From an uncultured Chloroflexia bacterium (GTDB lineage Bacteria > Chloroflexota > Dehalococcoidia > UBA2979): a DNA stretch of 64,000 bases. Positions 4,973 through 49,224 of this stretch are shown one piece after another. The stretch spans positions 896,001-960,000 of the forward strand of contig CAVSIV010000006.1 in NCBI GenBank assembly GCA_963728205.1. The letters are read 5' to 3'. The translations under genes were made by a program, and so were the position numbers. The notes under the pieces are model-generated. The model was given only the letters and a program-made list of their open reading frames with translations. It made no database searches and was not told the origin of the DNA. The number at the start of each line of letters is the position of its first letter. Position 1 is the stretch's first letter.

Positions 4973-4987
4973 GTTAATCCGCGGTTA
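4973..4987 (-). promoter_or_regulatory. TAAC-N7-TAAC box 1
   Basis: Minus strand TAACcgcggatTAAC, then 10 bp, then TAGCGT. Confidence 0.7.
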
Positions 4988-5032
4988 GACCTGCCCGTCA
5001 CGCGGCTCGACGCAGGAACGGTCGCGGAACCG

Positions 5033-6830
5033 CTACAGGACGGGCCGTCCTGCACGGACGGATCCCCGCGCCAGGCCGACACACCAGGCAACCTGGGCCG
5101 CGGCGACGCGCGCTGCGCTCCGGGCCGACGGGCGCCAGCGGGATGGCCGCACACCGAACCGACGCCCGAGTTGCGCGAGCCATGGGACGGCGAGCACGAG
5201 CGGCCGCCGATCCCGCCGCAACGCAGCGGCCGCAGCCCCCAGCAGCATCAGGTCAAAGTTCCGTGTCTCGCGAGACGCGAAGACGCCCATCACGAGCCCG
5301 CCTCGCATCTCCGGCACGGTGCGGTACATGGTCGGCAGGCCGCTCGCCGCGCGCACCTGGTTCCAGAACCCGCCCGGCGACGGGAAGCGCCGCCCCACCG
5401 CGACCTGCTCGCTATAGCGCGACCGCCACCCGTGGCGCTGGAGCCGCCAGGCGAGCTCCGCGTCCCAGCCGATCGTCGCCTCGCCGCCACCCAGAGACGG
5501 ATCGAAGCCGCCGACCGCAGCCACGGCATCCCTGCGATGCGCCGTGTTCCAGACCGGGAAGAGGTCCAGGCGGGGGCGTTCGCGCCACTCGTGATCGGGC
5601 CGTGTGCCGGGCGTATCCAGGAACTTCGGGTGGCTCTCGGCGGCGGCGTAGACCGGGCCGCTCACCACCCCCGTGTCGGCGTCGAATCTCGCGTACGCAC
5701 GACTCCACCCAGTCCGCGGGAACCTCGCAGCGGTCATCCGTGTGGACGATGACGTCGGCGTCGGTCGCACGCATCGCCAGGTTCCGCGCGGAGGGTCCCT
5801 CGGCGGGAGAGGCGACAATGTCGCGGACGCGGCCCTGCGTGCGTTGCGCACACTGCTCGAGCGCGCCCGTCACGTCCGGGCGCCGTCCATCGTGGAGCAC
5901 GAGGATCTCCGTGCGATCGATCGGGAAGGTCTGCTGGAGCAGGGCGTCCAGGGACCGCGTCAGCCGCTCCCCCCCGGCGTGGGCGGACACGACAACCGCG
6001 ACCCGGGGATCGGGCGGCGGCGGCCCGCAGTCATCGCCGGGGCGTGGCGCCAGCTCCGCGACCAGCGTGTCCGCGGCGTTCGGCACGCGCGTCTCGGCAA
6101 CGCGCGCGAGGCGGCACCCCAGGTAGCGAGCGAGGGTCATCAGCTCGAAGTCGCGCAGGAGGCGGCGGCCCGCGACGCAGTCGATGCGCTCGGGAACGAA
6201 CCCGCACTCCAGCGCGAGCTCGGTCAGCTCGTCCCGGTGGTACTCGTGCACCGTGGGGAGCGGCGGTCGACCGAACGAGAAGGGCGGCGCGGCGTGGCGC
6301 AGCGAGAAGCGCCGACCGGCAACGGCGTTCAGCCGGTTCCCGAGCCTGCTCTGGTTGACCGTGGCGAGGAACACCCGTCCGCCGGACCGCAGGCCGCGGC
6401 GGAGCGCTCTGAGGAACTCGCGCTCACCGCGGGGCAGTGCCTCCAGCACGAATGGGACAACGATCGCCGCATACCGCTTCTCGATCGGTCCAGGATCCGA
6501 GAGCGTCGCCGCCGTCACGTCTCGCTCGACGCGCCCCAGCATGTCGTCGCTGAAGTGAGATCCGGGAAAGCGCCAGAGGGACAGGTCGAATCCGCGAGCG
6601 ACCAGCACGCTCGCCAGCAGCTCCCCACCGCCGATCAGCAGGACGGGACTACCCGGCGCGATGTGGCGCTCCAGGCGTCGCACGAGATCCGCGGCGAGCG
6701 GCAGCTCGTCGTTCAGGTGGTGGTATTCGCGCTCGGTGAGCGAGAGGCTGTCCAGCACGTCCTCGACGATGCGCAGGTAGCCGGGGCGTCGGGAGCGGTT
6801 CCGCCCCGGCGCCGCCTGCACGTCGGTCAC
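5033..6830 (-). pseudogene. Methyltransferase-like domain fused to GT2; frameshifted near 5686-5690 (pseudogene or assembly error)
   Basis: Frame of ORF 5412..7397 gives MTase-like region plus GPSARNLAMR..IVHTDDRC..WVESCVRE. GT2 continues as FDADTGVVSGP..WDAELAWRL..GSVRAGRPVL in frame of ORF 5033..5851. Confidence 0.75.
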
Positions 6831-8026
6831 GCGGGCCACGGCTGGAGCTCCACGCTGCGCAGGTCGCCGCCGTCTGCCATCGCAATCAGCAGCTGCTCGG
6901 TCACCGCGCCGATGCGATCGAGGCTGAACTGCATCGCCCACGCTCGACAGCGATCCGCGGTCCCCGGCCGGCGCGCGATCTCGATCGCCTCGATCACGGC
7001 ATCGGCCAGCTGCTGGGCGCGCAGCTCGCTGACCAGGTCGCCATACGTCTCGAGCGGCACCGTGACGCCGACGTCGGGGCTGCGCATGATCTCGCCCGGT
7101 CCGGCGGAGGAGCTGCAGACCACGGGGGTGCCGCAGGCGAGCGATTCGGTCACCACCATGCCAAAGGCCTCCTCGACCGAGGGGAGGACGGTCACGGCCG
7201 CGCGGCTGTACTCCATCGGCAGGGCCCGCAGCGCCCCCGCCCCCGGCACCTCGATGGCCGCGCGCGCCGCCGCCCCGGGCACGAGCGCCTCCATGCGCTC
7301 GAGCGTGTACACGTCGGAGCCGCGGTCGAAGCCGAGCCCGAACGGTCCGGCGAGCACCAGCGTCGCCCGCGGGCACCGGCGATGGATCTCGTTCCACGCG
7401 CGGAGCAGCAATGGCCCGCCCTTGCGCGGGTCGCCCAGGTCTCCGGTGAAGAGGACGCGCGGCGCCGACAGGTCCTTCGGCGCGGATGGGGTGAACGTCT
7501 CCGTGTTGACGGGCGGCGGCAGTGCCATGGCCGGCACGCCGTACGTCGCCTCCATCTCGCGCGCGCCGCCCGGCGTCAGCGCAGCGACCCGGTCGGCGTG
7601 GCGCATGAGCTGCTCGAAGACCAGGCGATCCACGCGCCCGGGCCAGCGGTGCGTCCGCAGCACCATGTGGAACAGGTACGGGAGGTCGAGCGCCCGCCGC
7701 AGCAGCGGTGCGGTCACGATGCCCGAGTAGCTCCAGAGGTGCGCCGCGTCGTAGTGCCCGCGCACCAGGTGCCAGGTCGCCTGGGTGCCGAACGCATACA
7801 GCCGCAGGAGCGGACCGTAGTTGTTGAGCACCGGGTGCACCGCCTGGCGCAGGTAGATCACGCGGACGGCGCCGTCATACGCGACGCGGCCGCGGCCCGG
7901 CTTCGAGGTGATGATGTCCACGTGGTGTCCGCGCGCCGCGAGGTAGCCGGTCAGGTCGTGGATGCAGCGTTCGACGCCGCGGCGCATGTACGGCCAGTAG
8001 GCGGGATAGGGATAGGCGATCCTCAC
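6827..8026 (-). CDS. Family 4 glycosyltransferase
   Basis: RGVERCIHDL..GHHVDIIT; RKGG; LPSVEEAFGMVVTESLACGTPVV. Confidence 0.92.
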   Translation of the reverse strand: MRIAYPYPAYWPYMRRGVERCIHDLTGYLAARGHHVDIITSKPGRGRVAYDGAVRVIYLRQAVHPVLNNYGPLLRLYAFGTQATWHLVRGHYDAAHLWSYSGIVTAPLLRRALDLPYLFHMVLRTHRWPGRVDRLVFEQLMRHADRVAALTPGGAREMEATYGVPAMALPPPVNTETFTPSAPKDLSAPRVLFTGDLGDPRKGGPLLLRAWNEIHRRCPRATLVLAGPFGLGFDRGSDVYTLERMEALVPGAAARAAIEVPGAGALRALPMEYSRAAVTVLPSVEEAFGMVVTESLACGTPVVCSSSAGPGEIMRSPDVGVTVPLETYGDLVSELRAQQLADAVIEAIEIARRPGTADRCRAWAMQFSLDRIGAVTEQLLIAMADGGDLRSVELQPWPA

Positions 8027-8086
8027 GATCTGGCTCCCCGTGCGCCTGCTGGCCGGAGCGGCGACGTGCCACGACGCCTGCGACGT

Positions 8087-9055
8087 CTACTTGAACGCGT
8101 GGAAGATGACCTTCGGGATGTTCCTGCGGAAGTTGGAATTGAGCAGGAAGCGCGACTGCTCCTCGACCCGCGAGAAGCGCGCGAGGTGCAGCCAGAGCTT
8201 GTACGTCAGCACGCTCGGCTGCCACCACACGTCGCCCTGGCCCGCCCAGCAGAACTGCGCGACCGCGTCCTGGCCGTGGTCGTCCAGATCGGGGTTGTAG
8301 ACGTCCCCGAACACCGCGAAGCCGCGCGTCACGGTAGAGATCGACTCCATCGCACGCAGCGGGTCGCGCAGGTGGATGAGCAGGTCGCTACAGAAGACCA
8401 TGTCGAACGTGCCCAGGCGCTCCGGGCTCACGTCGTAGACGCTGCACGTCTCGTACTGGACGTTCGAGCCGAGGACCTCCTTCGCGATGCGGAAGCCCTC
8501 ACCCTTCGTGATCTTCGGGACGTTCTCCTCCCACTTGTCCCACCACAGGCGCGGGACGTCGGTGCTGTGCGTGTCGGCGACGTCGATGGCAACGACATCC
8601 GCACCGCGCCGCTCGAACTCGAACGCCCAGAACCCGTCGAACGTGGCGACGTCGAGGACGCGCATCCCGGACATGTCCCGGGGCAGGTGGTAGTAGGGCA
8701 GCTGTTCGCGATGGTCGACGTAGCCGGGCGTGGTCACGCCATGCGGGAGCTCGAGCGTGTGGTACCAGTCATATCCGCTGATGCGCTCCAGGATCGCGCG
8801 GGCTTCGGGGGTCGCCGGCACGTTCATCGGCACCACCGGCTTCTCCGCGGGGAAGCCGGCGCGGTACATGTCCGCGCCCTTGTGCAGGCTCTGTTGCGAA
8901 CGCCGACGGGCGCGCGAGAGCGCGCGGAACGGAGCGCTTCCGAGCAGCGACTCCGCGATCGTGGCGTCGAGCCCCAGCCCAATGTCGACCGGCCCGAGGC
9001 TGAGGCGCGTTTCGCGCACCTTCCGCCGCAGTCGACCGTCCCTCACCATCGTCAT
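8087..9055 (-). CDS. Class I SAM-dependent methyltransferase (CmoB/DUF1698-like), paralog 1
   Basis: WYHTLELPHGVTTPG, RVLDVATFDGFWAFEFERRGA, FDMVFCSDLLIHLRDP; RBS GAGGAGG before ATG 9055. Confidence 0.88.
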   Translation of the reverse strand: MTMVRDGRLRRKVRETRLSLGPVDIGLGLDATIAESLLGSAPFRALSRARRRSQQSLHKGADMYRAGFPAEKPVVPMNVPATPEARAILERISGYDWYHTLELPHGVTTPGYVDHREQLPYYHLPRDMSGMRVLDVATFDGFWAFEFERRGADVVAIDVADTHSTDVPRLWWDKWEENVPKITKGEGFRIAKEVLGSNVQYETCSVYDVSPERLGTFDMVFCSDLLIHLRDPLRAMESISTVTRGFAVFGDVYNPDLDDHGQDAVAQFCWAGQGDVWWQPSVLTYKLWLHLARFSRVEEQSRFLLNSNFRRNIPKVIFHAFK

Positions 9056-9268
9056 GATGTCCTCCTCGTCGGCGAATCGATCGACCGGCACGACGGCCAC
9101 GAACGAGCATCGGCGCCGGGCCCGTTCGCCGGCCTGGCGTTCCGCCGGCAGTGGCGGACTTCCCCGGCCGGCGCAGAGCCTCCCGACACGGTGAGCAGGC
9201 GGGCTCCCGCAGCCCGCGTCTGCTGGAAGTGCCGGCGCGCTGATGGGCGGGATTCTCGGGCCGACGCA

Positions 9269-9283
9269 GTTAACCGCGAGTTA
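9269..9283 (-). promoter_or_regulatory. TAAC-N7-TAAC box 2
   Basis: Minus strand TAACtcgcggtTAAC, then 11 bp, then GAGAAT. Confidence 0.7.
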
Positions 9284-9371
9284 CGCCGGTCGGGTGCCGG
9301 CCGGCCCCCGGGCGCCGACGCGAACGCGTGGCCCACCCTCCGGGACTGTGGACGCGCGTCGCGGGACGCGC

Positions 9372-10409
9372 TCAGAGCACGATGCGGCGATGGCGCACGC
9401 TTCCGTACCAGAGGGAGAGGACGAGCAGCAGCGAGCTCTCCACCTGGATCGCCAGGCGCAGCGCCGCGCGGGCCCAGCGGCCCGGGGGCCAGGCATCAAT
9501 ACGCAGGATGGGCATGACCGAGCGGAGCCAGGGCAACGCGAGCAGGAGCGCCGGCCGCCGCCGCCACCCGCACAGCGCGGCCGCAATGAAGAGGTAGAAC
9601 TGCGCCGTCTGTCGCTTGAGAAAGAAGCGACGGTAGAAGCACATGGTGCGCAGCTCCGGGGCGACCGCGACCATCCGCGGGACGACCTGCGCCTGCACGG
9701 CGTTGAGCAGGTACTCGCGCGCCGACACCGGCGACGCCTGGTGCCGCACCGCGGCCGCCGGCGCAAACGCCGAGGCGTAACCGGCGCGCTTCACACGCCA
9801 CGCCATCTCGGTGTCGTCCCCGCCGATGGGCTGCCCCCAGGCGTACGTGCGGGAGCGCTCGTCAAAGCCACCCAGCCGGAGGAAGACGTCGCGCCGGTAG
9901 AAGATGTTCGCGGTCGGGTACAGCCCCTCCTCGCGGTCGACGGCGTTGATCTGGTGCACGAAGAACGGCGCGTCCCGACCGACGGGGATCGGCAGGATCG
10001 GCCCGCACACGAGCCCGGTGCCGGCAGTGAACGCCCCGACGCCGGAGCTGAGCCAGCCGGGCTCGGGGAGACAATCGCTGTCCGTGAACGCGACGAACTC
10101 GCCGGCGGCGAGCTCGGCGCCGCGGTTCCGCGACGAGGCGGGCCCGTCGTTCTCCTTGCGCACGTACCGCACGGGCAGCCCGCCTTCGGTTGCCCGCAGG
10201 ACGACGTCGCGCGTCTCGTCGTCCGACTCGTTGTCCACGACGATGATTTCCGCGCGCGCGAGGGAGAACGTCTGCTGCGACAGCGCCACCAGGAGGTCGC
10301 GGAGTTGCGGCGCCCGGTTGCGCGTCGGGACAACGATGCTGACGAGCGGCGCGCCGGAAGCGGTGGGGCGATCCGGGGTCCCGCCCGTCCGGTGCGCGTC
10401 AGTACTCAC
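9372..10409 (-). CDS. Family 2 glycosyltransferase
   Basis: VSIVVPTRNR, VAFTDSDC, GGDDTEMAWR, C-terminal GSVRHRRIVL. Confidence 0.92.
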   Translation of the reverse strand: MSTDAHRTGGTPDRPTASGAPLVSIVVPTRNRAPQLRDLLVALSQQTFSLARAEIIVVDNESDDETRDVVLRATEGGLPVRYVRKENDGPASSRNRGAELAAGEFVAFTDSDCLPEPGWLSSGVGAFTAGTGLVCGPILPIPVGRDAPFFVHQINAVDREEGLYPTANIFYRRDVFLRLGGFDERSRTYAWGQPIGGDDTEMAWRVKRAGYASAFAPAAAVRHQASPVSAREYLLNAVQAQVVPRMVAVAPELRTMCFYRRFFLKRQTAQFYLFIAAALCGWRRRPALLLALPWLRSVMPILRIDAWPPGRWARAALRLAIQVESSLLLVLSLWYGSVRHRRIVL

Positions 10410-11193
10410 CGAGCGAGCCCCGCCGCTTCGCGTGCGCGACCGCCCGGTCGAACGTCAACGTCCCGACCGGCACGAGGATCAGCGCCGTCAGCGCGAGCAC
10501 GAGGACCTGCGGCGCCACGGCGGTCGGCGGCCGCCCGTCGAGGCCGGCCCGCACTCCGTCGAGGACGTAGGTGATCGGGAGCAGCATCGCGAACGGATGC
10601 AGCCAGCTCGGGAGAACGCTGACGGGGAACACCACGCCGCCGAGCAGCGCCATCGCGCCGGCGTAGGCGAGGCGAATCGGGTCGCCCTGCTTCACCACGA
10701 TGACGAACGCACCCGAGAGCGCGCCGATACCCGCGAACGTGCCGATCGCCGGCAGCGCCACGAGCAAGATCGTGAGCGGGTCGGCGCCGCGCCAGAAGCC
10801 CAGCGCAACCACCCCGAAGCCGATGAGGATCACCGCGCGGAGTATCGCGAGCAGGAAGCGAAACAGCCAGAACGACAACAGCAGCGTGGTGGTGGAGATC
10901 GGCGCGAGCAGGACCGGCTCGAGCGTGCCCGCGCGCTGGCTGTCGCTGATGTGAGCGGGGAGGCCGTTCATCGCCTGTGCCATGAGGTCCATCACGGCGA
11001 GCCCGACGAGCAGGAACGCCACGTAGCTCCCGCCCTCCTCTCCGATCAGCTTCGAGCGATCCCCGACCGCGTTGCCGCCGAGGAAGACGATGGCCGCGAG
11101 CACGATCACCGACGCCAGCTGCCAGAACGCGGCAAGCCGGTAGCTGCTCCAGACCAGGAAGTCCCGCCGCAGGTATCCGAACACGACCGTCAC
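10399..11193 (-). CDS. ABC-2 type transporter permease
   Basis: Six hydrophobic segments, GTLEPVLLAPIS, GGVVFPVSVLPSWL..LPITYVLDGVR. Confidence 0.9.
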   Translation of the reverse strand: MTVVFGYLRRDFLVWSSYRLAAFWQLASVIVLAAIVFLGGNAVGDRSKLIGEEGGSYVAFLLVGLAVMDLMAQAMNGLPAHISDSQRAGTLEPVLLAPISTTTLLLSFWLFRFLLAILRAVILIGFGVVALGFWRGADPLTILLVALPAIGTFAGIGALSGAFVIVVKQGDPIRLAYAGAMALLGGVVFPVSVLPSWLHPFAMLLPITYVLDGVRAGLDGRPPTAVAPQVLVLALTALILVPVGTLTFDRAVAHAKRRGSLGEY

Positions 11194-12212
11194 GCCGGCA
11201 CCTCCTCGCGCGGCACGCGCGGCTGGCCCTTCGCGATCCGCGAGAACACCTCCTCCAGGGGGAGGTCGCGTCGCTCGCACGACCACACGCTGCCGCCGCT
11301 CGTCACGACGTGACCGATCACGGCGGGGATGCTGGGGCGGCCGCGCTCGATGCCGAGTCGCACCAGCCGCCTGCCATCGGCCATTGGCAGGCTCTCCACC
11401 GCGGTCACCCCCCGGATTCGACGAAGCTCATCGAGGGTCGCCCGACCCAGCGGCCCCACGGTGAGCTCGTACACATCGTCGGCCTCGATGAAGTCGCGGA
11501 GGTCCGAGACGCTCCCGCTGACCTGGATCGCGCCGTGGTTGATGAACGCCAGGCGATCGCACAGGTACTCGGCTTCGGCCATGATGTTCGTCGCGATGAG
11601 AACGCAGCGATGCTCGCCGACGACGCGCTCCTTGATCAGGCTCCGCAGCTCCTCGGAGCCGACCGGATCGAGGGTTCTCGTCGGCTCGTCCATGATCAGG
11701 ATGTCGGGATCGTGGAGGAGGCCGCGCGCGATCGAAACGCGCTGGCGCATGCCGGACGAGAAGTGGTGCATCCGCACGTCCGCTGCGTGGGAGATGCCCA
11801 CGACCTCGAGCAGCTCCATCGCCCGACGCTTCGCCTCGCGACGCGACATTCCGTAGAGCGACGCGTAGAAGGCGAGGTTCTCGAGGGCCGAGAGGCGCCA
11901 GTAGAACGTGCGCTCGTCCCCGTAGACGACCCCGAGCTTGCGTCGCACCGCGAGACCATGCGACCGCACGTCGAGCCCGTCCACCGTCACCGTCCCCGCG
12001 GTCGGCAGGGTCAGGGTGGCGATCACCTTCACCAGCGTGGTCTTCCCGGCCCCGTTGGGGCCCAGCAGCCCGCAGATCTCGCCGCGGTCGACCGCGAGGC
12101 TGAGGTGATCCAGCGCGACGGCGCCGGGATCGCGCCGCAGCAGCGACCGCCAGCCCTGCTGCTGCGGAAACCGCACGACGAGTTCGCTGGCGACGATGGC
12201 TGCGGATGTCAT
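11190..12212 (-). CDS. ABC transporter ATP-binding protein (DrrA-like)
   Basis: GPNGAGKTT, FSSGMRQR, ILIMDEPT. Confidence 0.95.
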   Translation of the reverse strand: MTSAAIVASELVVRFPQQQGWRSLLRRDPGAVALDHLSLAVDRGEICGLLGPNGAGKTTLVKVIATLTLPTAGTVTVDGLDVRSHGLAVRRKLGVVYGDERTFYWRLSALENLAFYASLYGMSRREAKRRAMELLEVVGISHAADVRMHHFSSGMRQRVSIARGLLHDPDILIMDEPTRTLDPVGSEELRSLIKERVVGEHRCVLIATNIMAEAEYLCDRLAFINHGAIQVSGSVSDLRDFIEADDVYELTVGPLGRATLDELRRIRGVTAVESLPMADGRRLVRLGIERGRPSIPAVIGHVVTSGGSVWSCERRDLPLEEVFSRIAKGQPRVPREEVPA

Positions 12213-12239
12213 GTGGCGTGATGAAAGCCGCCGGCTGGA

Positions 12240-12254
12240 TAACTGGCAGTTAAC
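12240..12254 (+). promoter_or_regulatory. TAAC-N7-TAAC box 3 (divergent intergenic region)
   Basis: TAACtggcagtTAAC, then 10 bp, then CAGACT; overlapping degenerate TAAC-N7-TATC on the minus strand. Confidence 0.7.
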
Positions 12255-12364
12255 CGCGGGGCCACAGACTCCGCAGGCTCCCCTCGAACGGAGTGCAGCT
12301 CGCGACGGATCGGGCTCCCTCCCTGCCGTCTCCGCGGTCCGACCGTTCCGTCAGGAGGTCCGGC

Positions 12365-13996
12365 GTGCCGCCACGACTCGTCCGCCCGCTTGCCGTCGCC
12401 CTCCTCGTCTTCGCCACATTCGGCGCGGTGCGCTCCACCGCGGCCGCACCCATCTCCCTCACCACCGTCGACCAGACGTTCGGGACGGGGGGCTTCACGA
12501 CGGTGGACATCGGCGGACCCGGGGGCCCAAACGGTCAGCAGGAGGACGAGCCGTTCTCCATCGTCGTGCAGCCGGACGGCAACTACGTCGTCGCCGGGAA
12601 GGCGTTGAATCCGCGAACGAAGAACATCGACTTCGCGATTCTCCGCTACACGCCGCGCGGAGTGCTCGACTCCACCTTTGGCTGGAACGGCATCGTGCTC
12701 GTGGACTTCACCGGGGATCACGACGAGGCGATGTCGGTCGCGTTGCAGCCGGACGGGAAGATTCTCGTCGCCGGGCTCGCGGGTCGCTCGAACGGGAACA
12801 GCGACTTCGGACTGGTGCGCCTCAACCGGAACGGCAGCCGCGACACGACGTTCGGCTGGAACGGCGTCGTGATGACCGACTTCTTCGGCCAGCCCGACCA
12901 GGCGCTGGGGGTGGTCCTGCAGAGCGACGGCAAGATCATCGTCGGCGGGTACGCGACCCGAAGCGCCGGCAACATGGACTTCGCGCTCGCGCGCTACTAC
13001 CCGACGGGGGCGGTCGACGCGACGTTCGGAATCGGCGGCCGCTCGACGGCGAACTTCTGGGGCCGCATCGACGCCATCTACAAGCTCGCGCTCAATCCTC
13101 TGGGGCGCATCGTCGCCGCCGGGGTCGCGCAGCGGCCCGACGGCACGATGGACTTCGCGGTCGGCCGCTTCCAGGCCAGCGGTGCACCCGACAGCACGTT
13201 CGGGCTCGGCGGCTTCGTCGCGACGGATTTCTTCGGCGACCAGGACGTCGCCTATTCGCTGCTCGTCGAGCCCGACAGCTCAATCGTCGCCGGGGGGATC
13301 GCATACAACCCCGCCGGAGGCGGCGGGGACCTGGCCCTCGTGAAATACCTGGCGAACGGAGCGATCGACACGTCGTTCGCCCGCTCCGGAACGACGCCCG
13401 GCAAGGTGATCGTGGACTTCTTCGGCGACTACGACCAGGCGCTGTGGCTGGTGCGGCAGCCTGATGGCAAGATCGTCGCCATCGGTCATGCCAAGGACCA
13501 GGCGCGGAGCTTCAACTTCGGCCTCGCGCGGTTCGCGCCGAACGGCGAGCTGGATCCGACGTTCGGCAGCGGCGGCACATACGTCACCGACTTCTACAGC
13601 GGCCCGGATGGCGCGCATGCCGGCGCGTTGCTCGACGACGGCGCCCTGATCGTCGTCGGCGACGCGTTTGTCCCCGCGACGGACAGCGACGACTTCACGA
13701 TCATCAGGTACCTGGTCTCCGACCCGAGCTGGATCGCCGGGGTCGTGCGCTCGCTGCCCGCGACCGCCTTCGACGACGCGGCGCGCGGCGCGAGCATCGC
13801 GGCATCGCTCGACGACGCACAGGCCGCGCTCGCGAGCGGCGACGCTGCGGGCGCGCTCTCGCCGTTGCAGACGCTCGAGTCGCACCTGCAGGGATGCCCG
13901 GCGAGCCCCGACGGCGACGCGTGGATCGTCGATTGCGCCGCCCAGGTGCGCGTGCGTGGCCTGGTCGAGAGCGTCATCGCCAGGCTCGCGCCCTAG
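12365..13996 (+). CDS. Secreted delta-60 repeat (beta-propeller) protein
   Basis: Signal peptide, ~7 repeats of xxQPDGKIxVAG..DFALxRY..GxLDxTFGxxG; small helical C-terminal domain with two Cys; RBS GGAGG before GTG 12365. Confidence 0.88.
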   Translation: MPPRLVRPLAVALLVFATFGAVRSTAAAPISLTTVDQTFGTGGFTTVDIGGPGGPNGQQEDEPFSIVVQPDGNYVVAGKALNPRTKNIDFAILRYTPRGVLDSTFGWNGIVLVDFTGDHDEAMSVALQPDGKILVAGLAGRSNGNSDFGLVRLNRNGSRDTTFGWNGVVMTDFFGQPDQALGVVLQSDGKIIVGGYATRSAGNMDFALARYYPTGAVDATFGIGGRSTANFWGRIDAIYKLALNPLGRIVAAGVAQRPDGTMDFAVGRFQASGAPDSTFGLGGFVATDFFGDQDVAYSLLVEPDSSIVAGGIAYNPAGGGGDLALVKYLANGAIDTSFARSGTTPGKVIVDFFGDYDQALWLVRQPDGKIVAIGHAKDQARSFNFGLARFAPNGELDPTFGSGGTYVTDFYSGPDGAHAGALLDDGALIVVGDAFVPATDSDDFTIIRYLVSDPSWIAGVVRSLPATAFDDAARGASIAASLDDAQAALASGDAAGALSPLQTLESHLQGCPASPDGDAWIVDCAAQVRVRGLVESVIARLAP

Positions 13997-13998
13997 CG

Positions 13999-15210
13999 AT
14001 GGCCGCCCCGCGCGATCCCGCGAAAGGCATCGCTCCGCTGCCGTCACGCGGCCCGACCGCGCCCGGCGAGCTCAGCGCCCCGTGGGTCACCTGGGCCCTC
14101 TCGCAGGGTGGGCTTCGGCTGGACGCGCCGGTCGCGTCAATCGAGGTCGAGACGCTCAAGTCGCAGGCTGCCCTCACCGGCAGCGTCGCGCGCGTGCGGC
14201 TTCGCGCGCCCGGCGCCGGACTCCCGCCATCGCTGATCGCGAAGTTCCCCGCCTCGACCGGTCCCACCCGCGCACTGGCGGAGCGCTTCGACCTGTACCG
14301 CCGTGAGGCGCGGTTTTACCGCGAGCTCGCCGCGACCTGCGGGGTACCGACGCCGCGGCCGTACTACACGCCGCGCGACGACGAGCCGAGCGTGCTGCTA
14401 ATCGAGGATCTCGTCGACACCGTCTCCGTGGACGTGGTCGACGGCGCGTCCTTCGATCAGGTCGCCGCCGTCGTCGAGCTCCTGGCGCCAATGCACGCTC
14501 GCTTCTGGAACGACACCGCGCTCGCCGCGCACTCGTGGCTGCCGGCCCCGAACAACGCCGTGATCCTCGAGCTGGTCGGAGAGCTGGGTACGCACCCCTG
14601 GCGCCAGTTCCGCCGGCAGTTCGCTCGCTCGCTGCCGGCAGACGTCGTGGACATCGGCGATCGACTTGCCGTCGACCGCACCGTGCTCGACCGCCTCTCC
14701 GCCGCCCCCTGGACGCTCGTGCACGGCGACATGCGCATCCACAACATCCTGTTTCGCTCCGATCGCCCCGCGCAGCCGCGAGCGGTGATCGACTGGCAGA
14801 CCGCCACGCGCGGGAGAGGCCCGCTCGACCTCGCCCACCTCTTCGTCAACAGCCTTGACGTCGAGGACCGCCGGCGGGCGGAGGCGGACCTGCTGCCCCG
14901 CTACCACGCGCTCCTGCGCGCGGCGGGCGTCGCCGGGTACGAGCTCGAGGATTGCCGGATCGACTATCGCCTCGCCGTCGCCAACCAGTTCAGCCAGGTG
15001 GTCGCGCTCAACGCCCTGATCGACCCGTTGTCGAAGCTCGACGACGAGGTCGCGACGTCGACGGGCGCTCGTCTCGTCGCGGCGCTCCGCGAGCTGCGGG
15101 TGCTCGACATCCTCCCGCCGACGCGGCGCCAGCGCGTCCGGGCACGCGTGAAGCGCGTGCTCCCCGCGCCGGCGAGGCGGCTCGCGCGCGCCGCGCTGCG
15201 CCGCCGCTGA
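13999..15210 (+). CDS. APH/ecdysteroid-kinase-like phosphotransferase
   Basis: SLIAKF, YRREARFY, LLIEDL, TLVHGDMRIHNILF, VIDWQ. Confidence 0.85.
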   Translation: MAAPRDPAKGIAPLPSRGPTAPGELSAPWVTWALSQGGLRLDAPVASIEVETLKSQAALTGSVARVRLRAPGAGLPPSLIAKFPASTGPTRALAERFDLYRREARFYRELAATCGVPTPRPYYTPRDDEPSVLLIEDLVDTVSVDVVDGASFDQVAAVVELLAPMHARFWNDTALAAHSWLPAPNNAVILELVGELGTHPWRQFRRQFARSLPADVVDIGDRLAVDRTVLDRLSAAPWTLVHGDMRIHNILFRSDRPAQPRAVIDWQTATRGRGPLDLAHLFVNSLDVEDRRRAEADLLPRYHALLRAAGVAGYELEDCRIDYRLAVANQFSQVVALNALIDPLSKLDDEVATSTGARLVAALRELRVLDILPPTRRQRVRARVKRVLPAPARRLARAALRRR

Positions 15211-15299
15211 CGAGGCGTGCCGCTCGCGCCCGCGGCCGGCGCCATCGCGCTCCGCCGGCCTCGACCCCGGTCATACGCGCGAGGCGCTGCCATCTCCAT

Positions 15300-15314
15300 T
15301 AACTGCCGCGTAAC
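15300..15314 (+). promoter_or_regulatory. TAAC-N7-TAAC box 4
   Basis: TAACtgccgcgTAAC, then 11 bp, then TAGATA. Confidence 0.7.
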
Positions 15315-15423
15315 TCGACGCATCTTAGATACGCGGACCGGGGACCTGCGGCGCGATCGCCAGGTTGGGGTCCCGCGCTCCCGCATGAGCGTCGCAAGAC
15401 GCAGATACACGAGGACGGCGGCT

Positions 15424-16446
15424 GTGTCGTTGAGCGTCGAGAAGAAGCTGACCGTCGCGGGGCTCGAGCTCGGGCTCGGCGTCGATGCCGCCCGCGCTGA
15501 GGCGCTGCGCACCAGTGGAGCCTATCGTCGCGTCCTGCAGCCGGCGCTCCTTGCTGCCAGGCGGCTGCGGCGAACGCGCCCCTCCGGCGCGGGCCCGGCG
15601 GTCGCCTCTGAAACGCGGGGGTCCCGGCCCGCGCCGCCCGCGACGGTGCAGCACGACCCGCGCGCCGCCGAGATCTGGGCCCAGATCGCGGACATCGGCT
15701 GGTACCACACCATCGACCTCGGACACGGCGTGGCGACGCCCGGCTTCATCGACAACCGGCCCACCGTCCATCGCTTCGGCATCCCGCAGGCGCTCACCGG
15801 GGCGCGCTGTCTCGACATCGGCACCTACGACGGTTTCTGGGCGTTCGAGTTTGAGCGGCGCGGGGCGACCGAGTCCATCGGCATCGACGTCGACTCCCCG
15901 GCCGACTACGACATCCCCCGTCCCTTCCGGTTGCTGGCCGACGAGCGCGCGGAGCACGCCCCGGAGACGCTCGAGCGCGACTGGAACACGCAGATGGCGC
16001 CCGTGGGCATGCAGTGGCCGGGCCAGGGCTTCCACGTCGCCGCGCGTCTGCTCGGGTCGAAGGCGCGCCGCGAGGTGCTCAACGTCTACGACCTCGCACC
16101 CGAGCGGCTGGGGATGTTCGACCTCGTCTTCATCAGCCAGCTGCTCCTCCGCCTGCGCGACCCCCAGACGGTGCTCGACAACATGATCTCGGTCACGAAG
16201 CCGGGTGGGTGCGCAATTGTGGCCGAGGGATACGACCCCGAATTGGAGCGACTCTCTCAGCCGGTCAGCCGCTTCGTCGGCGTGCAGTCGATGGGCATCT
16301 GGTGGTCGCACAGCATCAAGGCCATGAAGTTGATCATGGAGACGGCCGGCTACGAGCGCGTCGCGGTCGTGTCGACCTTCGAGGCCGAGAACCGCGTGGG
16401 ACGCTTCCCGAAGGTCGTGCTGCGCGGCTACGCGCCGCCGGCCTAG
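15424..16446 (+). CDS. Class I SAM-dependent methyltransferase, paralog 2
   Basis: WYHTIDLGHGVATPG, RCLDIGTYDGFWAFEFERRGA, FDLVFISQLLLRLRDP. Confidence 0.88.
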   Translation: MSLSVEKKLTVAGLELGLGVDAARAEALRTSGAYRRVLQPALLAARRLRRTRPSGAGPAVASETRGSRPAPPATVQHDPRAAEIWAQIADIGWYHTIDLGHGVATPGFIDNRPTVHRFGIPQALTGARCLDIGTYDGFWAFEFERRGATESIGIDVDSPADYDIPRPFRLLADERAEHAPETLERDWNTQMAPVGMQWPGQGFHVAARLLGSKARREVLNVYDLAPERLGMFDLVFISQLLLRLRDPQTVLDNMISVTKPGGCAIVAEGYDPELERLSQPVSRFVGVQSMGIWWSHSIKAMKLIMETAGYERVAVVSTFEAENRVGRFPKVVLRGYAPPA

Positions 16447-16495
16447 CGGATCCGCCCGGGTGTCGCGTCGAGGCTCGACGTCCGAGGGGTGAGCA

Positions 16496-17869
16496 ATGGA
16501 GCTCAACCAGTTCATCCGCCTCGTGGTTCGGCGCTGGTACATCGTCGCCGTGCTGCTCGTGGCGGCGTATGCCGGCACGTGGCTCTACCACGCGGTCACG
16601 CAGCGGGCGAAGGCAACGGGAACCGTGGCGGTTCTTCAGCCCTACGTGGCCGCGCCCGGCGAGTACATCCCTCCGCAGATCACGTTCGACACCATGGACG
16701 AGAGCGCGGAACTCGCGCGGCGCGTCCAGAGCCGGCTGCACGACGGGACGTCGGCGGAGACACTCCAGAACGGGATCGACATCGGCCTGCGGATCTCCAA
16801 CCGACCGACGCTGACGCCGCTGTACGAGGTCAGTTACTCGGACCGCGACACGGCGCGTGCGGAGCGCGTCGCAGGGATCGTGCTCGATGAGGCGATCGCG
16901 CTCTACGGCGAGCTCAACCGGCCCGCCGAGAAAGACGTGCGGGCGGCGTTCGAGGGCGAACGCCAGCGTGCGCAGGCCGCGGCCGACGCAGCCCAGGCGG
17001 CGCTCGCGAAGTTCGAGTCCGAGAACGACGCCTTCAATCTCACCGCGCGGCAGGACCAGACCCGCGGCTACCTGACCCAGCTCCACCTGCTCGCGTTGCA
17101 GCGCGGGTCCGGCGGAACCGGCTCGCTGTTGACCGCGGCGACGGCCGAGCTGGATCGGCTGACGCGCCTCGAGCCCGAGTACACGCGGCTGAAGAGCGAG
17201 GCCGACCTCGCGCAGACCGACCTGTACCGAGTCGACGCGCGCGTGAGCGATCTCACGGCGGCCCTGCCGGCCGGGCCCGCGATCCAGCCGTTCCTCGACG
17301 ACGCGACGAGCAACCTCCGCGCGGCAAAGGCGCGCGACGCGGCGGCGCAGGACGCGCTCGCCGCCTTCCGCCAGAGCAACGCCGTAGCGGATGTGACGGG
17401 GAGCCGGCAGGCGCAGCTTGCGCTCGTCAATCAGCTGCAGCTCGCCGAGACCTCGACCAGCGCGGGGAGCGGCACGATCGACGCGGCGATCGCCGAGCAG
17501 GAAACGGCGCTCGAGCGGCTCAACGCCCTCGCACCGCAGTACTCGCAATTGAGCCTCCAGGTCGGCCGGGCGGAGAGCCAGCTGTCGGCCCTCGAGCAGC
17601 ACATCCAGGAAATCGTCGGAGCCCAGGCGCTGCCATCGCAGAGCCAGACGCTGGTGCTCGAGCGCCCGACCCTGCAGTCGGACGTGTTCTGGATCCTGCT
17701 CACCTACGCCCTCGCCACCGTCGTCGCAGCATTCGCGGGCCTGACCCTCATCTACCTGCTGGGCGTCCTTGCCCGGAGGGCTCTGACCGTCGAGGAGATC
17801 GAAGCCCGACTCGGGCTTCCGGTATTCGCGACCGTGACAGAGGTCGGCTCGCGGAAGGGAGTCCTATGA
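16496..17869 (+). CDS. Polysaccharide co-polymerase / chain-length determinant (Wzz/GumC-like)
   Basis: MELNQFIRLVVRRWYIV N-terminal TM, long coiled coil, C-terminal TM followed by EEIEARLGLPVFATV. Confidence 0.8.
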   Translation: MELNQFIRLVVRRWYIVAVLLVAAYAGTWLYHAVTQRAKATGTVAVLQPYVAAPGEYIPPQITFDTMDESAELARRVQSRLHDGTSAETLQNGIDIGLRISNRPTLTPLYEVSYSDRDTARAERVAGIVLDEAIALYGELNRPAEKDVRAAFEGERQRAQAAADAAQAALAKFESENDAFNLTARQDQTRGYLTQLHLLALQRGSGGTGSLLTAATAELDRLTRLEPEYTRLKSEADLAQTDLYRVDARVSDLTAALPAGPAIQPFLDDATSNLRAAKARDAAAQDALAAFRQSNAVADVTGSRQAQLALVNQLQLAETSTSAGSGTIDAAIAEQETALERLNALAPQYSQLSLQVGRAESQLSALEQHIQEIVGAQALPSQSQTLVLERPTLQSDVFWILLTYALATVVAAFAGLTLIYLLGVLARRALTVEEIEARLGLPVFATVTEVGSRKGVL

Positions 17870-18465
17870 CCGCGGTCACCGTCTCAACCTCGCGAACGCT
17901 GCGCTCGTTGCTCCTCCGCCGGCGGCCGCGGCGACGCACGAGCGCCGTCTCCAGAGTTGCCGTCGGCGACGGCTCATTCGGAGGGGAGCAGTACCGCCTG
18001 CTCGCCCTCCACCTCGCGACGAACATGCGCAACCGGGATCAGAAGACCATCGCGCTGTTCCGCCCCACCGCCCGCGTGCCCGGGACGTCCATCGCGCTGA
18101 ACCTTGCGGCCGCGCTCGCTCAGCACGTCGAGGTCGTCGTGCTGAGCACGTCACCGGTGGATCGGGAGCTGCTCGACGCGGCGGCGTTGCTCGCGGAACG
18201 CAGCCATCGCGTGACCGGGCAGGTGATCTCCGAATCACAGGTTCCGGCGCGGATCGACGACGTCACCGACGCCTCGACCTTCGTCCTCGTCGACAGCCCG
18301 CCCGCGGATCGATCGAGCGGCGCCTACCACATCGCGCAGGCGGCAAAGCACGTGCTTTACCTGCTGCCGGAGAACGTCCACGAGCTGGACACGCACGAGC
18401 GGAACGTGCGTCAGCTCCGGCGGTTGCAGGTGAACGTGCTCGGCGTCCTGCTGTGCGGCGGCTAG
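17866..18465 (+). CDS. CpsD/Wzc-like tyrosine-kinase homolog with degenerate Walker A
   Basis: EQYRLL, IALNLAAALAQ, FVLVDSPP, VNVLGVLL; ATGA-coupled to the Wzz-like gene. Confidence 0.7.
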   Translation: MTAVTVSTSRTLRSLLLRRRPRRRTSAVSRVAVGDGSFGGEQYRLLALHLATNMRNRDQKTIALFRPTARVPGTSIALNLAAALAQHVEVVVLSTSPVDRELLDAAALLAERSHRVTGQVISESQVPARIDDVTDASTFVLVDSPPADRSSGAYHIAQAAKHVLYLLPENVHELDTHERNVRQLRRLQVNVLGVLLCGG

Positions 18466-18546
18466 CGGGCTCATGGCCCGCGCCGCCGCCGCTGCGGCAG
18501 TGATCGCCGCGCTCGCGGCGGCCGCCACCGGGACGCCGGGCCCGCA

Positions 18547-20112
18547 ATGACGCACGCCGTCACCGCTTCCGGCGGCGCGCGGCCATCGCCGCTGCGTCGC
18601 GCGCTGCGCACGTTCCTGCACGCGGTCCTGCTGCTGGCGTGCGCATTCGTCCTCTACGTTGCGAGCGTCGGCGGCCTGCTCGCTCTCGTGCTTGCTCTGT
18701 TCGTTGCCGGCGCGATCGCGCTCGCGGCGTACCGGTGGCCGACCGGCGCGACGCTCGCGATGCTCGTGATCGTCCCGATGTCCCGCAGCGTCTCCTTTGT
18801 CGCCTTCGCCACCTCGCGGTCCGCGCTGGTGCTGCACGCCAGCCAGCTGCTGAAGGACGAGCTGCTGATCGCGGTCCTCCTCGGGGTGCTCAACCTCGCG
18901 TTCCTGCGACGGCGGTGGCCGCGCGTGCACCTGATCGATCTCGCCGTCGCGGCCTACCTCGCCGTCACCCTCGTCTACGTCGCCTATCCGGGCGTCGACC
19001 ACAGCAGCGGCAGCGTGTTCGCTCGGTTCCTCGCATGGCGCCAGGACGGCTTCTACGTCCTCGCCTACTTCGTGGGCCGGGGGATCACGCTCCGCCGCGC
19101 CGACCTCACCCGCGCGCTCGGGATCGCGGGGACGATGAGCGTCGCCGTCGCGGTCTTCGCGGTGTTCGAGTTCGCGGCACCCGGGCTGAGCAACGGCCTG
19201 CTCAACAAGCTCGGATTCTCGGGCTTCATGGCGGCGATTGGCACCCCGCACGAGGTGCTCGCGGTCCGCAGCCGCGGCATCGGTGCGGCCGACCTCGCGC
19301 GGGCATCGTCCTTCTTCTTCGCCGACCTCGGCCTTGCGTACTACCAGCTCGTCGTGATTCCCGTGGCGGCCGGTCTGTTCGTCTTCAGTCGCGGCAGACT
19401 GCACCGCCGGGCAGCGCACGCGGGCTTCGTGCTGCTGATGATCGGCGTGCTCGGCCTCACGGTGACCCGCAGTGCCATCGCGGTCGCCGGGCTCGGGCTC
19501 GTCGTCGTCCTCCTGCTGCGCCCCTCCTATCTCCACGCCGCGGCCATCCTTCTCGGCGCCGGAGCGCTGCTCCTCGCGTTCATGCTCGTCGAAGGCATCC
19601 GGCCCGACGGCCTGCTCGCGCTCGGTTCGCTCAACGAAGGATCCGCGCAGTCGCATCTGGCGCTGCTGCACGAGGCGCTCGCGACGCTACAGCAATTCCC
19701 CGGCGGCCTCGGACTCGGCAACGGCAGCCATGTCGCGAACCAGCTGGCGACGTTCGGGGTCATGCTGCCCGTCTCCGCCGCCGAGTCCTGGTACCTGCAG
19801 CTCGGGCTCGAGATGGGCGTCCTCGGGATCGCGGCGTTCACCGTCGCCCTGCTCAGCGCGACGTTCTTCGCAATGGCGAATCACTTCCGGGTGCAGGACG
19901 ACCTGCTGCGCGCGCTCACGCTCGGCACGGCCGCGCTGGGCGCGAGCCTGATCGCGATCAGCGTGGTGCAGCCCGTCTGGGCGGCCGTACACGTCCCCTT
20001 CTTCTTCTGGCTCCTGGTCGGCATTGCCGTGCGCGCGCCGGTCCTCGATCGTCAGTGGCGCGCGAGCGGCGAGAGCCCGGTCCCGCCGCCCCGCGCGTCG
20101 GCGCCCGGCTAA
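18547..20112 (+). CDS. O-antigen ligase / Wzy polymerase-like membrane protein
   Basis: ~12 TM segments, TVTRSAI, PGGLGLGN, ESWYLQLGLEMGVLG. Confidence 0.8.
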   Translation: MTHAVTASGGARPSPLRRALRTFLHAVLLLACAFVLYVASVGGLLALVLALFVAGAIALAAYRWPTGATLAMLVIVPMSRSVSFVAFATSRSALVLHASQLLKDELLIAVLLGVLNLAFLRRRWPRVHLIDLAVAAYLAVTLVYVAYPGVDHSSGSVFARFLAWRQDGFYVLAYFVGRGITLRRADLTRALGIAGTMSVAVAVFAVFEFAAPGLSNGLLNKLGFSGFMAAIGTPHEVLAVRSRGIGAADLARASSFFFADLGLAYYQLVVIPVAAGLFVFSRGRLHRRAAHAGFVLLMIGVLGLTVTRSAIAVAGLGLVVVLLLRPSYLHAAAILLGAGALLLAFMLVEGIRPDGLLALGSLNEGSAQSHLALLHEALATLQQFPGGLGLGNGSHVANQLATFGVMLPVSAAESWYLQLGLEMGVLGIAAFTVALLSATFFAMANHFRVQDDLLRALTLGTAALGASLIAISVVQPVWAAVHVPFFFWLLVGIAVRAPVLDRQWRASGESPVPPPRASAPG

Positions 20113-20299
20113 CGCCCGCCGCCCGACGCCCCGGGCCGGACGGCCCGGCACCACCGCGCCTGCGCCCCGGGGCACCCGCGGCTCCACGCCGCGACTCCGC
20201 GTCTCCCGCGAGATCCGCGCGCTGCGATCCCGCCGGCGATCTCTTTCGCTTCGATGGCACCCGATGACGTAACCATCCCGCGATCCATCGCTGCTGGGT

Positions 20300-20314
20300 T
20301 AACTCACCCGTAAC
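20300..20314 (+). promoter_or_regulatory. TAAC-N7-TAAC box 5
   Basis: TAACtcacccgTAAC, then 11 bp, then TAGGGT. Confidence 0.7.
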
Positions 20315-20373
20315 CGCTCGATTCATAGGGTCCGACCTGTCACCGGGGCACACGAACCGAACCGAGTCGTGAC

Positions 20374-24927: not shown

Positions 24928-24976
24928 AGCCGCCCGCCCGGCCTGCTGACCACACCGCTCCCCCGGCGCGGCGGCG

Positions 24977-26188: not shown

Positions 26189-26222
26189 GGCCACCTCCCG
26201 GGGTCGAGCGATCACACCGCCG

Positions 26223-28989: not shown

Positions 28990-28999
28990 TCCCGGTTCC

Positions 29000-30918: not shown

Positions 30919-30979
30919 GGACAAACCGCCATCGCTCCCACTTGCCGCACCAGCACATGGTGCGTTGTAGGAGCGGCGA

Positions 30980-30994
30980 GTTACGCCGGAGTTA
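30980..30994 (-). promoter_or_regulatory. TAAC-N7-TAAC box 6
   Basis: Minus strand TAACtccggcgTAAC, then 10 bp, then TACAAC. Confidence 0.7.
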
Positions 30995-36726: not shown

Positions 36727-36792
36727 TCGCCCCCGGCGCAGCGCGAAGTGACGCAGCGCCGGGGGCGGGCGAGTCCATGCACACGGGCTCCG

Positions 36793-39609: not shown

Positions 39610-39654
39610 GGGCATGCCCCGGGCCGCTCGGCCGTAAGAGCCCGGGGCATGCCC
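39610..39654. repeat. 15-bp perfect inverted repeat (REP-like/terminator hairpin)
   Basis: GGGCATGCCCCGGGC-N15-GCCCGGGGCATGCCC. Confidence 0.6.
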
Positions 39655-39839
39655 ACCAGAGGGGAGCAGGCCCACGAGCGCCGACCATCGCGTGCGGAGC
39701 CCCCGGGGGACTTGCGGCGGGGCGCATAGTGTGGCTGTCGCCCGCGTCGCTGCGGCGCGCGGCGAGCGTCAGGGCCGGCGCGAGAGGCGGTCCGCGCGCG
39801 ACGGTGGTGGTCGCGATGCGGGGCCGGAGGAGGCACACG

Positions 39840-40886: not shown

Positions 40887-40926
40887 CAGCATCCGTCACG
40901 CCCGGGCCGGGCGAGGAGATCCAACC

Positions 40927-42132: not shown

Positions 42133-42349
42133 CGCGTGCCGCGCGAGCCCGTTCGACGGCCGCAGTACTCGGACTCCCTGCTCGGCGCGGCGCGGGCGCG
42201 CGACCAGCGTCGCCGGGCGCGAATGTCGTGACTCGCCCGCGCACCTCGGCCTCACGGCGCGGCAGGCCGGGTCGGCAACAGTCCCCGTCGGACCGGAGCG
42301 TCGCAACGGCGGGGGCGCGATTCCCCGCACCTGCATATGATCCGCCGCA

Positions 42350-48939: not shown

Positions 48940-49209
48940 GCTTGCGAACTCCCACCGCGGCAGACCGGTCCGGTGGCCTGCGGCGTGGCGTCGAGGATGC
49001 ACGCTGCTGCCACGGCGCACGCCGGCGGACGCCGCTCACCTTCATCGCGGTTCGCCTGGCGACCCTCGGGCGGGCGACCCAGCGCGATGTCTGCGCCACG
49101 AACCCGGTCACGACATCTTGCGCATCGCAACCGGCCACGGATGCCTGATCGGCTGTGCCGCCGCTGCGGCTCGCGGTCGGCATCGTGGCGCGAACCTAGG
49201 TCCGTCGCG

Positions 49210-49224
49210 GTTAATCGACGGTTA
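49210..49224 (-). promoter_or_regulatory. TAAC-N7-TAAC box 7 (NRPS promoter)
   Basis: Minus strand TAACcgtcgatTAAC, then 11 bp, then TAGGTT. Confidence 0.7.

Follow-up and report, generated by a model that had tools for sequence, protein, structure and literature searches.

Organization of the Locus

We analyzed a 64-kb window of DNA from an uncultured Chloroflexota bacterium (G000:C6:896001-960000; source genome G000, 4.13 Mb, 72.5% GC). The window carries a gene cluster for glycan biosynthesis and export, a gene for a small regulator of the SARP (Streptomyces antibiotic regulatory protein) type at one edge of this cluster, and a gene for a non-ribosomal peptide synthetase (NRPS). Seven copies of a paired motif, TAAC-N7-TAAC, precede operons of the cluster and the NRPS gene. 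We propose, with a probability of roughly 0.7, that these boxes are the operator sites of the SARP. Genes in the window were called from codon-phase GC and Pfam, and the main features are listed below in window coordinates.

2659..3570, minus strand: small SARP-type regulator of 303 aa, with a winged helix-turn-helix (wHTH) and a BTAD domain (Pfam and profile search)
3885..30924: glycan biosynthesis/export cluster of about 27 kb with seven transcription units (Pfam)
4987-4973, minus strand (element 4957..4987): box 1, TAACCGCGGATTAAC, 10 bp, then TAGCGT (4962-4957); upstream of the family 2 glycosyltransferase (GT2) gene 3885-4943
9283-9269, minus strand (element 9252..9283): box 2, TAACTCGCGGTTAAC, 11 bp, then GAGAAT; upstream of operon 9100-5033
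12240-12254, plus strand (element 12240..12270): box 3, TAACTGGCAGTTAAC, 10 bp, then CAGACT; upstream of operon 12293-15210
12221..12252, minus strand: mirror of box 3, TAACTGCCAGTTATC, one mismatch, 11 bp, TTTCAT, 8 bp, ATG at 12212
15300-15314, plus strand (element 15300..15331): box 4, TAACTGCCGCGTAAC, 11 bp, then TAGATA; upstream of the unit ending at 20112
20300-20314, plus strand (element 20300..20331): box 5, TAACTCACCCGTAAC, 11 bp, then TAGGGT; upstream of 20374-24927
30994-30980, minus strand (element 30964..30994): box 6, TAACTCCGGCGTAAC, 10 bp, then TACAAC; upstream of operon 30924-24977
49224-49210, minus strand (element 49193..49224): box 7, TAACCGTCGATTAAC, 11 bp, then TAGGTT; upstream of the NRPS gene
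43111-49020, minus strand: NRPS gene (Pfam: two AMP-binding, one Condensation, two PP-binding and one Thioesterase domain)

The glycan cluster encodes four GT2 and five GT4 glycosyltransferases, several S-adenosylmethionine-dependent methyltransferases, an ABC-2 exporter pair, a Bac_transf priming transferase, an epimerase, a Wzy_C ligase-like protein, an APH/EcKL-type kinase, and DUF5122 and DUF5010 proteins. The operon behind box 2 consists of a methyltransferase, a GT4 and a methyltransferase-GT2 gene, and that behind box 3 of a DUF5122 beta-propeller gene and the APH/EcKL-like kinase gene. Box 4 is followed by a methyltransferase gene (probable ATG at 15385), a gene for a 457-aa Wzz/PCP-like protein, a 199-aa open reading frame (ORF) and the Wzy_C gene (to 20112). 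Three GT4 genes and the DUF5010 gene make up the unit behind box 5, and the operon behind box 6 encodes the priming sugar transferase (Bac_transf), the epimerase, a methyltransferase, a GT2 and a GT4 enzyme.

An exact box was found on six of the seven transcription units of the cluster. The seventh, an operon for an ABC-ATPase, an ABC-2 permease and a GT2 enzyme (12212-9372, start ATG 12212), diverges from box 3 and shares its region. Read from its mirrored side, box 3 may be a shared bidirectional site that also serves this ABC-transporter operon, which would then have a leaderless start.

Rarity, Spacing and Placement of the Boxes

The seven boxes had been listed in an earlier reading of the same DNA (the original prediction), and all of them proved to be exact matches on the expected strands. 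The window holds 7 exact copies of the motif where 0.04 would be expected, and none of 100 dinucleotide shuffles reached 7. When up to one mismatch was allowed, a single extra site was found in the window (12238-12252, minus strand), which is the mirror of box 3. The fuller pattern TAACYS-N4-KTAACYS fits all seven boxes; the whole genome holds eight matches to it and none to the reversed control pattern.

TAAC itself is scarce, with a count of 1255 on both strands of the genome. We then counted TAAC pairs at each spacing from 0 to 30 and found 13 at N7 (7 of them inside the window) versus 0 to 4 at every other spacing. We rejected a repeat, a mobile element or chance as the origin of the boxes because their flanks are unrelated and only the N7 spacing is enriched.

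The codon-periodicity index (120 nt) was 0.05 to 0.18 at the seven box sites versus a window median of 0.40, which marks these sites as non-coding troughs. Each box lies between Pfam-supported genes and is oriented toward the downstream gene, so that the earlier statement that the boxes are intergenic and co-oriented holds for all seven. Box 4 needs a comment, since a long ORF starting at 15217 would span it. The orthologue of this ORF in a related genome (G019, see below) aligns from its residue 72 onward only, and an in-frame ATG is present at 15385; for these two reasons box 4 is likely to stand upstream of the true start.

Promoter Geometry

The two TAAC cores are exactly 11 bp apart in every box. 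All seven -10-like hexamers named in the original prediction were present 10-11 bp after the second TAAC. If the boxes are read as heptamers (TAACYSN with a 4-bp spacer), the distance from the second heptamer to this hexamer is 7 bp in boxes 1, 3 and 6 and 8 bp in boxes 2, 4, 5 and 7. Box 7 fits the motif perfectly and has the best of the predicted -10 elements (TAGGTT).

To these data we added further boxes, which gave a pooled set of 14 promoters (eight boxes from G000 and six from G019). A NANNNT hexamer was found at offsets 10-11 in 8 of the 14, and in 0 to 3 at every other offset in the range 0-44. The count at offsets 10-11 was the same (8/14) for hexamers that begin with TA, with 0 to 1 elsewhere, and 12 of the 14 boxes showed one or both of these features. 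No TTGACA-like hexamer was found 16-18 bp upstream of the predicted -10 in any of the 14 promoters, and a sigma-70 consensus scan of positions 2500-5100 returned no promoter-like site.

These distances can be compared with published ones. Passages on AfsR in PMC10936776 describe direct repeats 11 or 22 bp apart with the 3' repeat 8 bp away from the -10, and a side-by-side dimer on a 22-bp box that overlaps a poor -35, a mode termed 'sigma adaptation'. In a section of the review PMC10972967, heptameric SARP repeats are likewise said to overlap the -35. The geometry of our boxes, taken with their predicted -10 elements, agrees with this SARP rule.

The fixed distance to a -10-like element could also be explained if the repeats were promoter elements of an alternative sigma factor of the extracytoplasmic function (ECF) type rather than activator sites, and ECF -35 elements commonly contain AAC. 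We regard this explanation as hardly credible. An AAC-containing ECF -35 lies 16-17 bp from the -10; here, the second TAAC is 10-11 bp and the first 21-22 bp from the -10-like hexamer, so that neither fits a spacer of 16-18 bp. Recognition by a sigma factor does not call for a strict tandem duplication with 11-bp periodicity, and the downstream hexamers resemble housekeeping TANNNT elements. Moreover, the ORFs of the clusters in G000 and G019 yielded no sigma-factor domain.

The SARP at the Edge of the Cluster

Pfam places a BTAD domain at residues 118-257 of the 303-aa protein (E = 1.4e-17), directly after the wHTH, which is matched by Trans_reg_C at residues 40-101 with a borderline score (27.0 bits versus a cut-off of 26.2). 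A profile built from 13 relatives was compared with the PDB and matched the SARP domain of AfsR (8hvr, E = 2.6e-32) and EmbR (2fez, E = 2.4e-28). The alignments span both domains, and in AfsR they cover chain residues 41-285, including the wHTH. The assignment of 2659-3570 to the SARP family in the original prediction is therefore confirmed by both methods. The best non-self match in a large protein collection was only 39% identical, and close relatives of this protein are scarce.

A distance of 1.4 kb separates the SARP gene, at the edge of the glycan cluster, from box 1. Apart from the SARP, none of the scanned ORFs of the G000 and G019 clusters encodes a Pfam DNA-binding domain. No autoregulation box with up to one mismatch was found between 3570 and 3885. 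A minus-strand terminator-like site was not found either, so that the SARP may be co-transcribed with the GT2 gene from box 1.

The last residues of the SARP (about 265-303; 2659-2775, minus strand) form a hydrophobic tail rich in Ala, Gly and Leu, which the G019 orthologue lacks. This tail could be a membrane anchor or a read-through artefact.

Conservation in a Second Genus

G019, which belongs to the same family as G000 but to another genus, has the closest homologue of the SARP (47% identity) in a set of 40 relatives. A scan of species genomes with the SARP gave G019 as the sole close orthologue, and the two genomes form the only pair of close SARP orthologues. Our comparison covered 60 kb around the orthologue (contig G019:C6) in this one second genome. 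The contig holds a rearranged orthologous glycan cluster, nearly all genes of which are 43-76% identical to ours (Pfam, blastp). Six of the 10 exact boxes of the G019 genome lie within a 32-kb stretch of the cluster, and five of them precede the heads of orthologous operons, as follows.

G019:C6:19633, plus strand: counterpart of box 6, before the Bac_transf head, directly after the SARP orthologue
G019:C6:29362, minus strand: counterpart of box 5, before the GT4 head (GT4b)
G019:C6:42131, minus strand: counterpart of box 4, before a methyltransferase head (MTb)
G019:C6:45172, minus strand: counterpart of box 3, before the DUF5122 head
G019:C6:45215, plus strand: counterpart of box 2, before a second methyltransferase head (MTa)

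The sixth G019 box precedes a phosphoglucose-isomerase-like gene. The SARP orthologue ends 2 bp after the start of its first box. In G019, the counterpart of the GT2 gene that follows box 1 in our window closes the MTa operon and is not preceded by a separate box. Orthologous boxes of the two genomes have unrelated flanks outside the cores.

We built a matrix from the six G019 boxes and scanned the whole G000 genome with it. The top seven hits were six of the window boxes and a site at C6:1295293. All seven window boxes were within the top 12, box 7 ranked first (25.1 bits), and the mirror of box 3 ranked 10th.

The distribution of the system is narrow. The 457-aa protein was used as a marker of the cluster and was found in 2 of 99 family genomes and in 2 of 401 sampled class genomes, both times in G000 and G019. 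Clustered strict boxes were likewise confined to these two among the 99 family genomes, and the three other genomes of the same genus as G000 have neither boxes nor a close SARP. Two metagenome scans, one with the 457-aa marker and one with the DUF5122 protein as anchor, returned no relative of the cluster. The SARP gene accompanies the cluster in both genomes, and no other regulator gene does so.

This distribution bears on the question of whether the boxes are real operators of some other regulator, such as a BTAD/SARP paralogue, the GlnR-like protein (53084-54010) or the small wHTH protein (55168-55659); we consider this unlikely. The latter two, which the original prediction offered as alternative binders, both have a Trans_reg_C domain (Pfam), and OmpR-family regulators too read direct repeats with 11-bp periodicity. 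In addition, (G/T)TAAC-N6-(G/T)TAAC superficially resembles the consensus of the actinobacterial GlnR box. However, the GlnR-like protein was found in 24 of the 25 genomes searched, versus clustered boxes in 2 of 99, and two genomes in which it is 83% (G001) and 71% (G003) identical contain no strict box. Homologues of the small wHTH protein were found in 9 of the 25 genomes and in G019, and most of these genomes lack boxes. Near the glutamine synthetase (glnA) genes that adjoin the two regulators in the window, no box was found with up to one mismatch. The distributions of both proteins do not follow that of the motif.

Boxes Elsewhere in the Genome and Beside Other SARP Genes

The original prediction missed the mirrored reading of box 3 and an eighth box, which lies outside the window. 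This box and one further candidate in G000 are as follows.

G000:C6:1295293 (locus 1295293-1296979, = L005:6001-7687), plus strand: eighth strict box, 335 kb away, upstream of the gene for a 522-aa protein
G000:C2:145406-145420, minus strand: exact box TAACTCGGGGATAAC, followed after 10 bp by GACGGT; immediately upstream of a gene for an HDOD-domain protein; score 18.5 with the G019 matrix

The 522-aa protein is Cys-rich, has an N-terminal signal peptide and has no Pfam match. Its gene is part of an island in which GC drops to about 62%, compared with 72% for the genome, and no homologue was found in the five relatives searched. Another matrix match, at C6:1296934, was treated as chance because it lies inside the coding sequence of this same ORF.

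The remaining exact matches in the genome are at C1:236504, C2:145406, C6:672625, C6:1060557 and C6:1778701. Most of them do not fit TAACYS or have no co-oriented gene. The box at C2:145406-145420 is a possible ninth member of the regulon. The site at C6:672625, TAACGCTCCCGTAAC, is adjacent to the gene for a second small SARP.

We also found boxes beside SARP-domain genes that are not orthologous to ours. The only BTAD gene of G015 encodes a PAS-wHTH-BTAD protein, and two of the three exact boxes of that genome lie within about 1.3 kb of it, as follows.

G015:C2:18832-20182 (= L022:10832-12182): divergent intergenic region with two tandem boxes about 150 bp apart

The regulator gene diverges here from a molybdopterin-oxidoreductase / 4Fe-4S / EB_dh / NarJ-like operon, and the boxes precede this operon. 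The same arrangement was found in G065, a second species of the same genus as G015 (G065:C36:3362-4662). The N-terminal sensor fusion of the G015 and G065 regulators differs from the usual 'large SARP' layout.

In G040, which belongs to another family, four of the genome's nine boxes lie within 3 kb of a PAS-GAF-wHTH-BTAD gene (G040:C140, = L031:4278-12536). They have the form TG-TAACG(C/T)T-N-GTGTAAC and precede a multicopper oxidase gene, a heme-copper oxidase operon (COX2/COX1) and two ORFs of unknown function. Hexamers of the TATAGT, TAACCT or GAAAAT type follow the boxes at 9-10 bp. This subtype is represented by a fifth box at G040:C125:25797. Across ten other SARP-homologue loci (36 kb), there are four TAAC pairs at N7, in two loci, versus 0 to 1 at other spacings and none for the reversed control. 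Finally, G028 has 17 exact boxes on 17 contigs versus four matches to the reversed control pattern.

A more tentative reading, which we hold to be less likely than not, is that SARP-domain activators throughout Chloroflexota form a clade that is not devoted to antibiotics and that has TAAC-heptad boxes of this kind as its common recognition code. Stand-alone SARPs may then switch on envelope-glycan programmes, and PAS/GAF-fused forms may switch on respiratory enzymes, namely the molybdopterin oxidoreductase operon in G015 and G065 and the multicopper and heme-copper oxidases in G040. As part of the same proposal, a single SARP in G000 may couple the glycan pathway, two secreted proteins and the NRPS product into an inducible remodelling of the cell surface. 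If this were true, 'sigma adaptation' would reach beyond the secondary metabolism of actinomycetes and into the core physiology of a second phylum.

Predicted Mode of Regulation

In our preferred reading, the TAAC-N7-TAAC boxes are the operator sites of the small SARP situated at the cluster. Two SARP protomers would bind side by side on two 11-bp direct repeats with the core (G/T)TAACYS. Between the downstream heptamer and a TAGnnT-like -10 there are 7-8 bp, so that the 22-bp box would occupy the place where a -35 is normally found. The bound SARP dimer would then replace the missing -35 contact and recruit RNA polymerase, which would be the 'sigma adaptation' solved for AfsR. Physical binding by the SARP, activation rather than repression, the start sites of transcription and an inducing signal are what we infer from these data.

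The predicted regulon would comprise six or seven operons of the ABC-transporter-type surface-glycan pathway of about 27 kb, the monocistronic two-module NRPS gene 18 kb away and the gene for the secreted Cys-rich protein 335 kb away. For the glycan cluster, the geometry, the footprint in G019 and the co-distribution of SARP and boxes, together with exact boxes on 6 of 7 units, support as a prediction the earlier claim that this SARP co-activates nearly every transcription unit.

Several observations weigh against this reading. A PDB search with the single SARP sequence gave no SARP and just a spurious weak match. The ABC-transporter operon has just the one-mismatch mirror site, and no convincing -10 is seen at offsets 10-11 in two of the 14 pooled boxes (G19c and G19f). 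Searches of G019, G001, G003 and G015 gave no NRPS orthologue. Eight of the ten other SARP-homologue loci have no TAAC-N7-TAAC within about 1.5 kb, and in G028, an assembly of 320 contigs, none of the 17 boxes shares a contig with either BTAD gene. G000 itself has eight BTAD matches and many OmpR-family regulators, so that another paralogue could be the binder. In addition, a site over the -35 region would suit a repressor too.

The last two points deserve attention. As to paralogues, TAAC-type boxes also adjoin other SARP genes, so that more than one SARP paralogue may read such boxes; the second small SARP of G000 is, however, only 29% identical to the cluster SARP, and the heptamer of its adjacent box, TAACGCT, differs. 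As to the direction of control, the SARP might bind the boxes and repress, since they overlap the core promoter and occlusion of the -35/spacer region is a common repression mode. We find this improbable. All 14 pooled promoters are without a usable -35 and are therefore expected to be weak without help. The characterized SARPs described in passages of PMC10936776 and PMC10972967 are activators that bind at exactly this position.

The original prediction also held that the glycan cluster and the NRPS form one system. A strict box, box 7, stands before the NRPS gene, but conservation gives no support because no NRPS orthologue was found in G019, G001, G003 or G015; the link is accordingly a prediction limited to G000. 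'One system' would here mean a shared switch, that is, a predicted co-regulation in this genome.

Further Features of the Cluster and Its Neighbors

A block of tailoring-type enzymes (31042-43114) lies between the glycan cluster and the NRPS gene. These genes have no counterpart in the compared 60 kb of G019.

The 457-aa protein (16496-17869, plus strand) has no Pfam match. It has hydrophobic segments at both ends and a long middle part rich in Ala, Gln and Leu, which is the topology of a Wzz/PCP chain-length regulator, and it is 58-59% identical to its G019 counterpart.

Two genes of the window are apparently split. The methyltransferase-GT2 gene (5033-7397, minus strand) consists of two overlapping frames that meet near 5684-5707, and a single 593-aa orthologue in G019 aligns to both pieces; this is either a real frameshift or an assembly indel. 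The H+-pyrophosphatase gene (57656-59696, plus strand) is divided between frames near 58256-58290, with Pfam H_PPase positions 1-199 in one ORF and 212-645 in another, which suggests assembly indel errors or a broken gene.

In the region of box 7, an ATG at 49183, 9 nt past TAGGTT, opens a 116-aa ORF on the minus strand (49183-49198 region) in a frame that differs from that of the NRPS. The NRPS start at 49020 is 163 nt beyond this ATG. The small ORF could be leaderless, or the NRPS gene could have a long 5' untranslated region, or this could be another indel.

Comparison with Known Systems

The closest parallel is AfsR on the afs box of the afsS promoter in Streptomyces coelicolor (PDB 8hvr, 8jke and 8k60). 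There too, two 11-bp direct repeats form a 22-bp box over the -35/spacer region, the 3' repeat is about 8 bp from the -10 and the -35 is poor; the family profile aligns both the DNA-binding and the BTA domains. However, AfsR belongs to Actinomycetota, whereas our protein belongs to Chloroflexota and is a small SARP without NOD or TPR domains. AfsR targets a regulator of secondary metabolism, and here the predicted targets are envelope-glycan operons. Sequence identity is low, as is seen from the fact that the single-sequence PDB search missed the match, and the AfsR repeat given in a section of the review PMC10972967, CGTT(T/C)ATCGNN, differs from the TAACYS core found here.

Small cluster-situated SARPs of actinomycetes, such as ActII-ORF4 and DnrI, resemble our protein in having a wHTH and a BTAD domain, in their length of about 300 aa and in the position of their gene at the edge of the cluster they control. 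The part of PMC10972967 that deals with them describes heptameric direct repeats with 4-bp spacers before several operons per cluster. They differ in that they control antibiotic pathways, whereas the predicted targets here are six or seven glycan operons, an NRPS gene and an unlinked gene for a secreted protein, and the heptamer differs as well.

EmbR of Mycobacterium tuberculosis (2fez) shares the SARP-type wHTH and BTAD architecture (profile E = 2.4e-28). It is linked to cell-envelope glycan (arabinan) genes and is kinase-controlled, and we know of no TAAC repeat box for it. EmbR has a C-terminal FHA domain, according to a passage in PMC10936776, whereas Pfam finds none in the SARP at 2659-3570.

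The glycan cluster itself can be compared with ABC-transporter-dependent O-polysaccharide clusters (Escherichia coli O9a, WbdD type) and with the S-layer glycan cluster of Geobacillus (slg). Common to these pathways are a priming Bac_transf, an ABC-2 permease and ATPase, many GT2 and GT4 enzymes and a Wzy_C ligase-like protein, together with methyltransferases and a kinase as possible chain terminators. To our knowledge, no SARP-type regulon has been reported for clusters of this type, and SARPs have been studied almost exclusively as switches of antibiotic clusters in actinomycetes. The listings of our literature search contained no paper about Chloroflexota SARPs, SARP-controlled polysaccharide clusters or TAAC-type SARP boxes, nor any about respiratory enzymes controlled by sensor-fused SARPs with such boxes.

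The finding is solid as a prediction and its mechanism is unsurprising. It yields a predicted SARP regulon for an uncultured Chloroflexota lineage, with a defined 22-bp box, eight predicted promoters and a footprint in a second genus. The box can be used to find co-regulated genes at non-adjacent positions, and the box and regulator together could give one handle to switch on the 27-kb glycan pathway and the orphan NRPS in a heterologous host. In function and architecture, the predicted system is a canonical small-SARP regulon. What is new in comparison with the systems above is the phylum, the sequence of the box and the type of target, namely an ABC-transporter-type surface-glycan pathway with an NRPS and a secreted protein, together with the hint that respiratory enzymes are under the control of sensor-fused SARPs associated with similar boxes.

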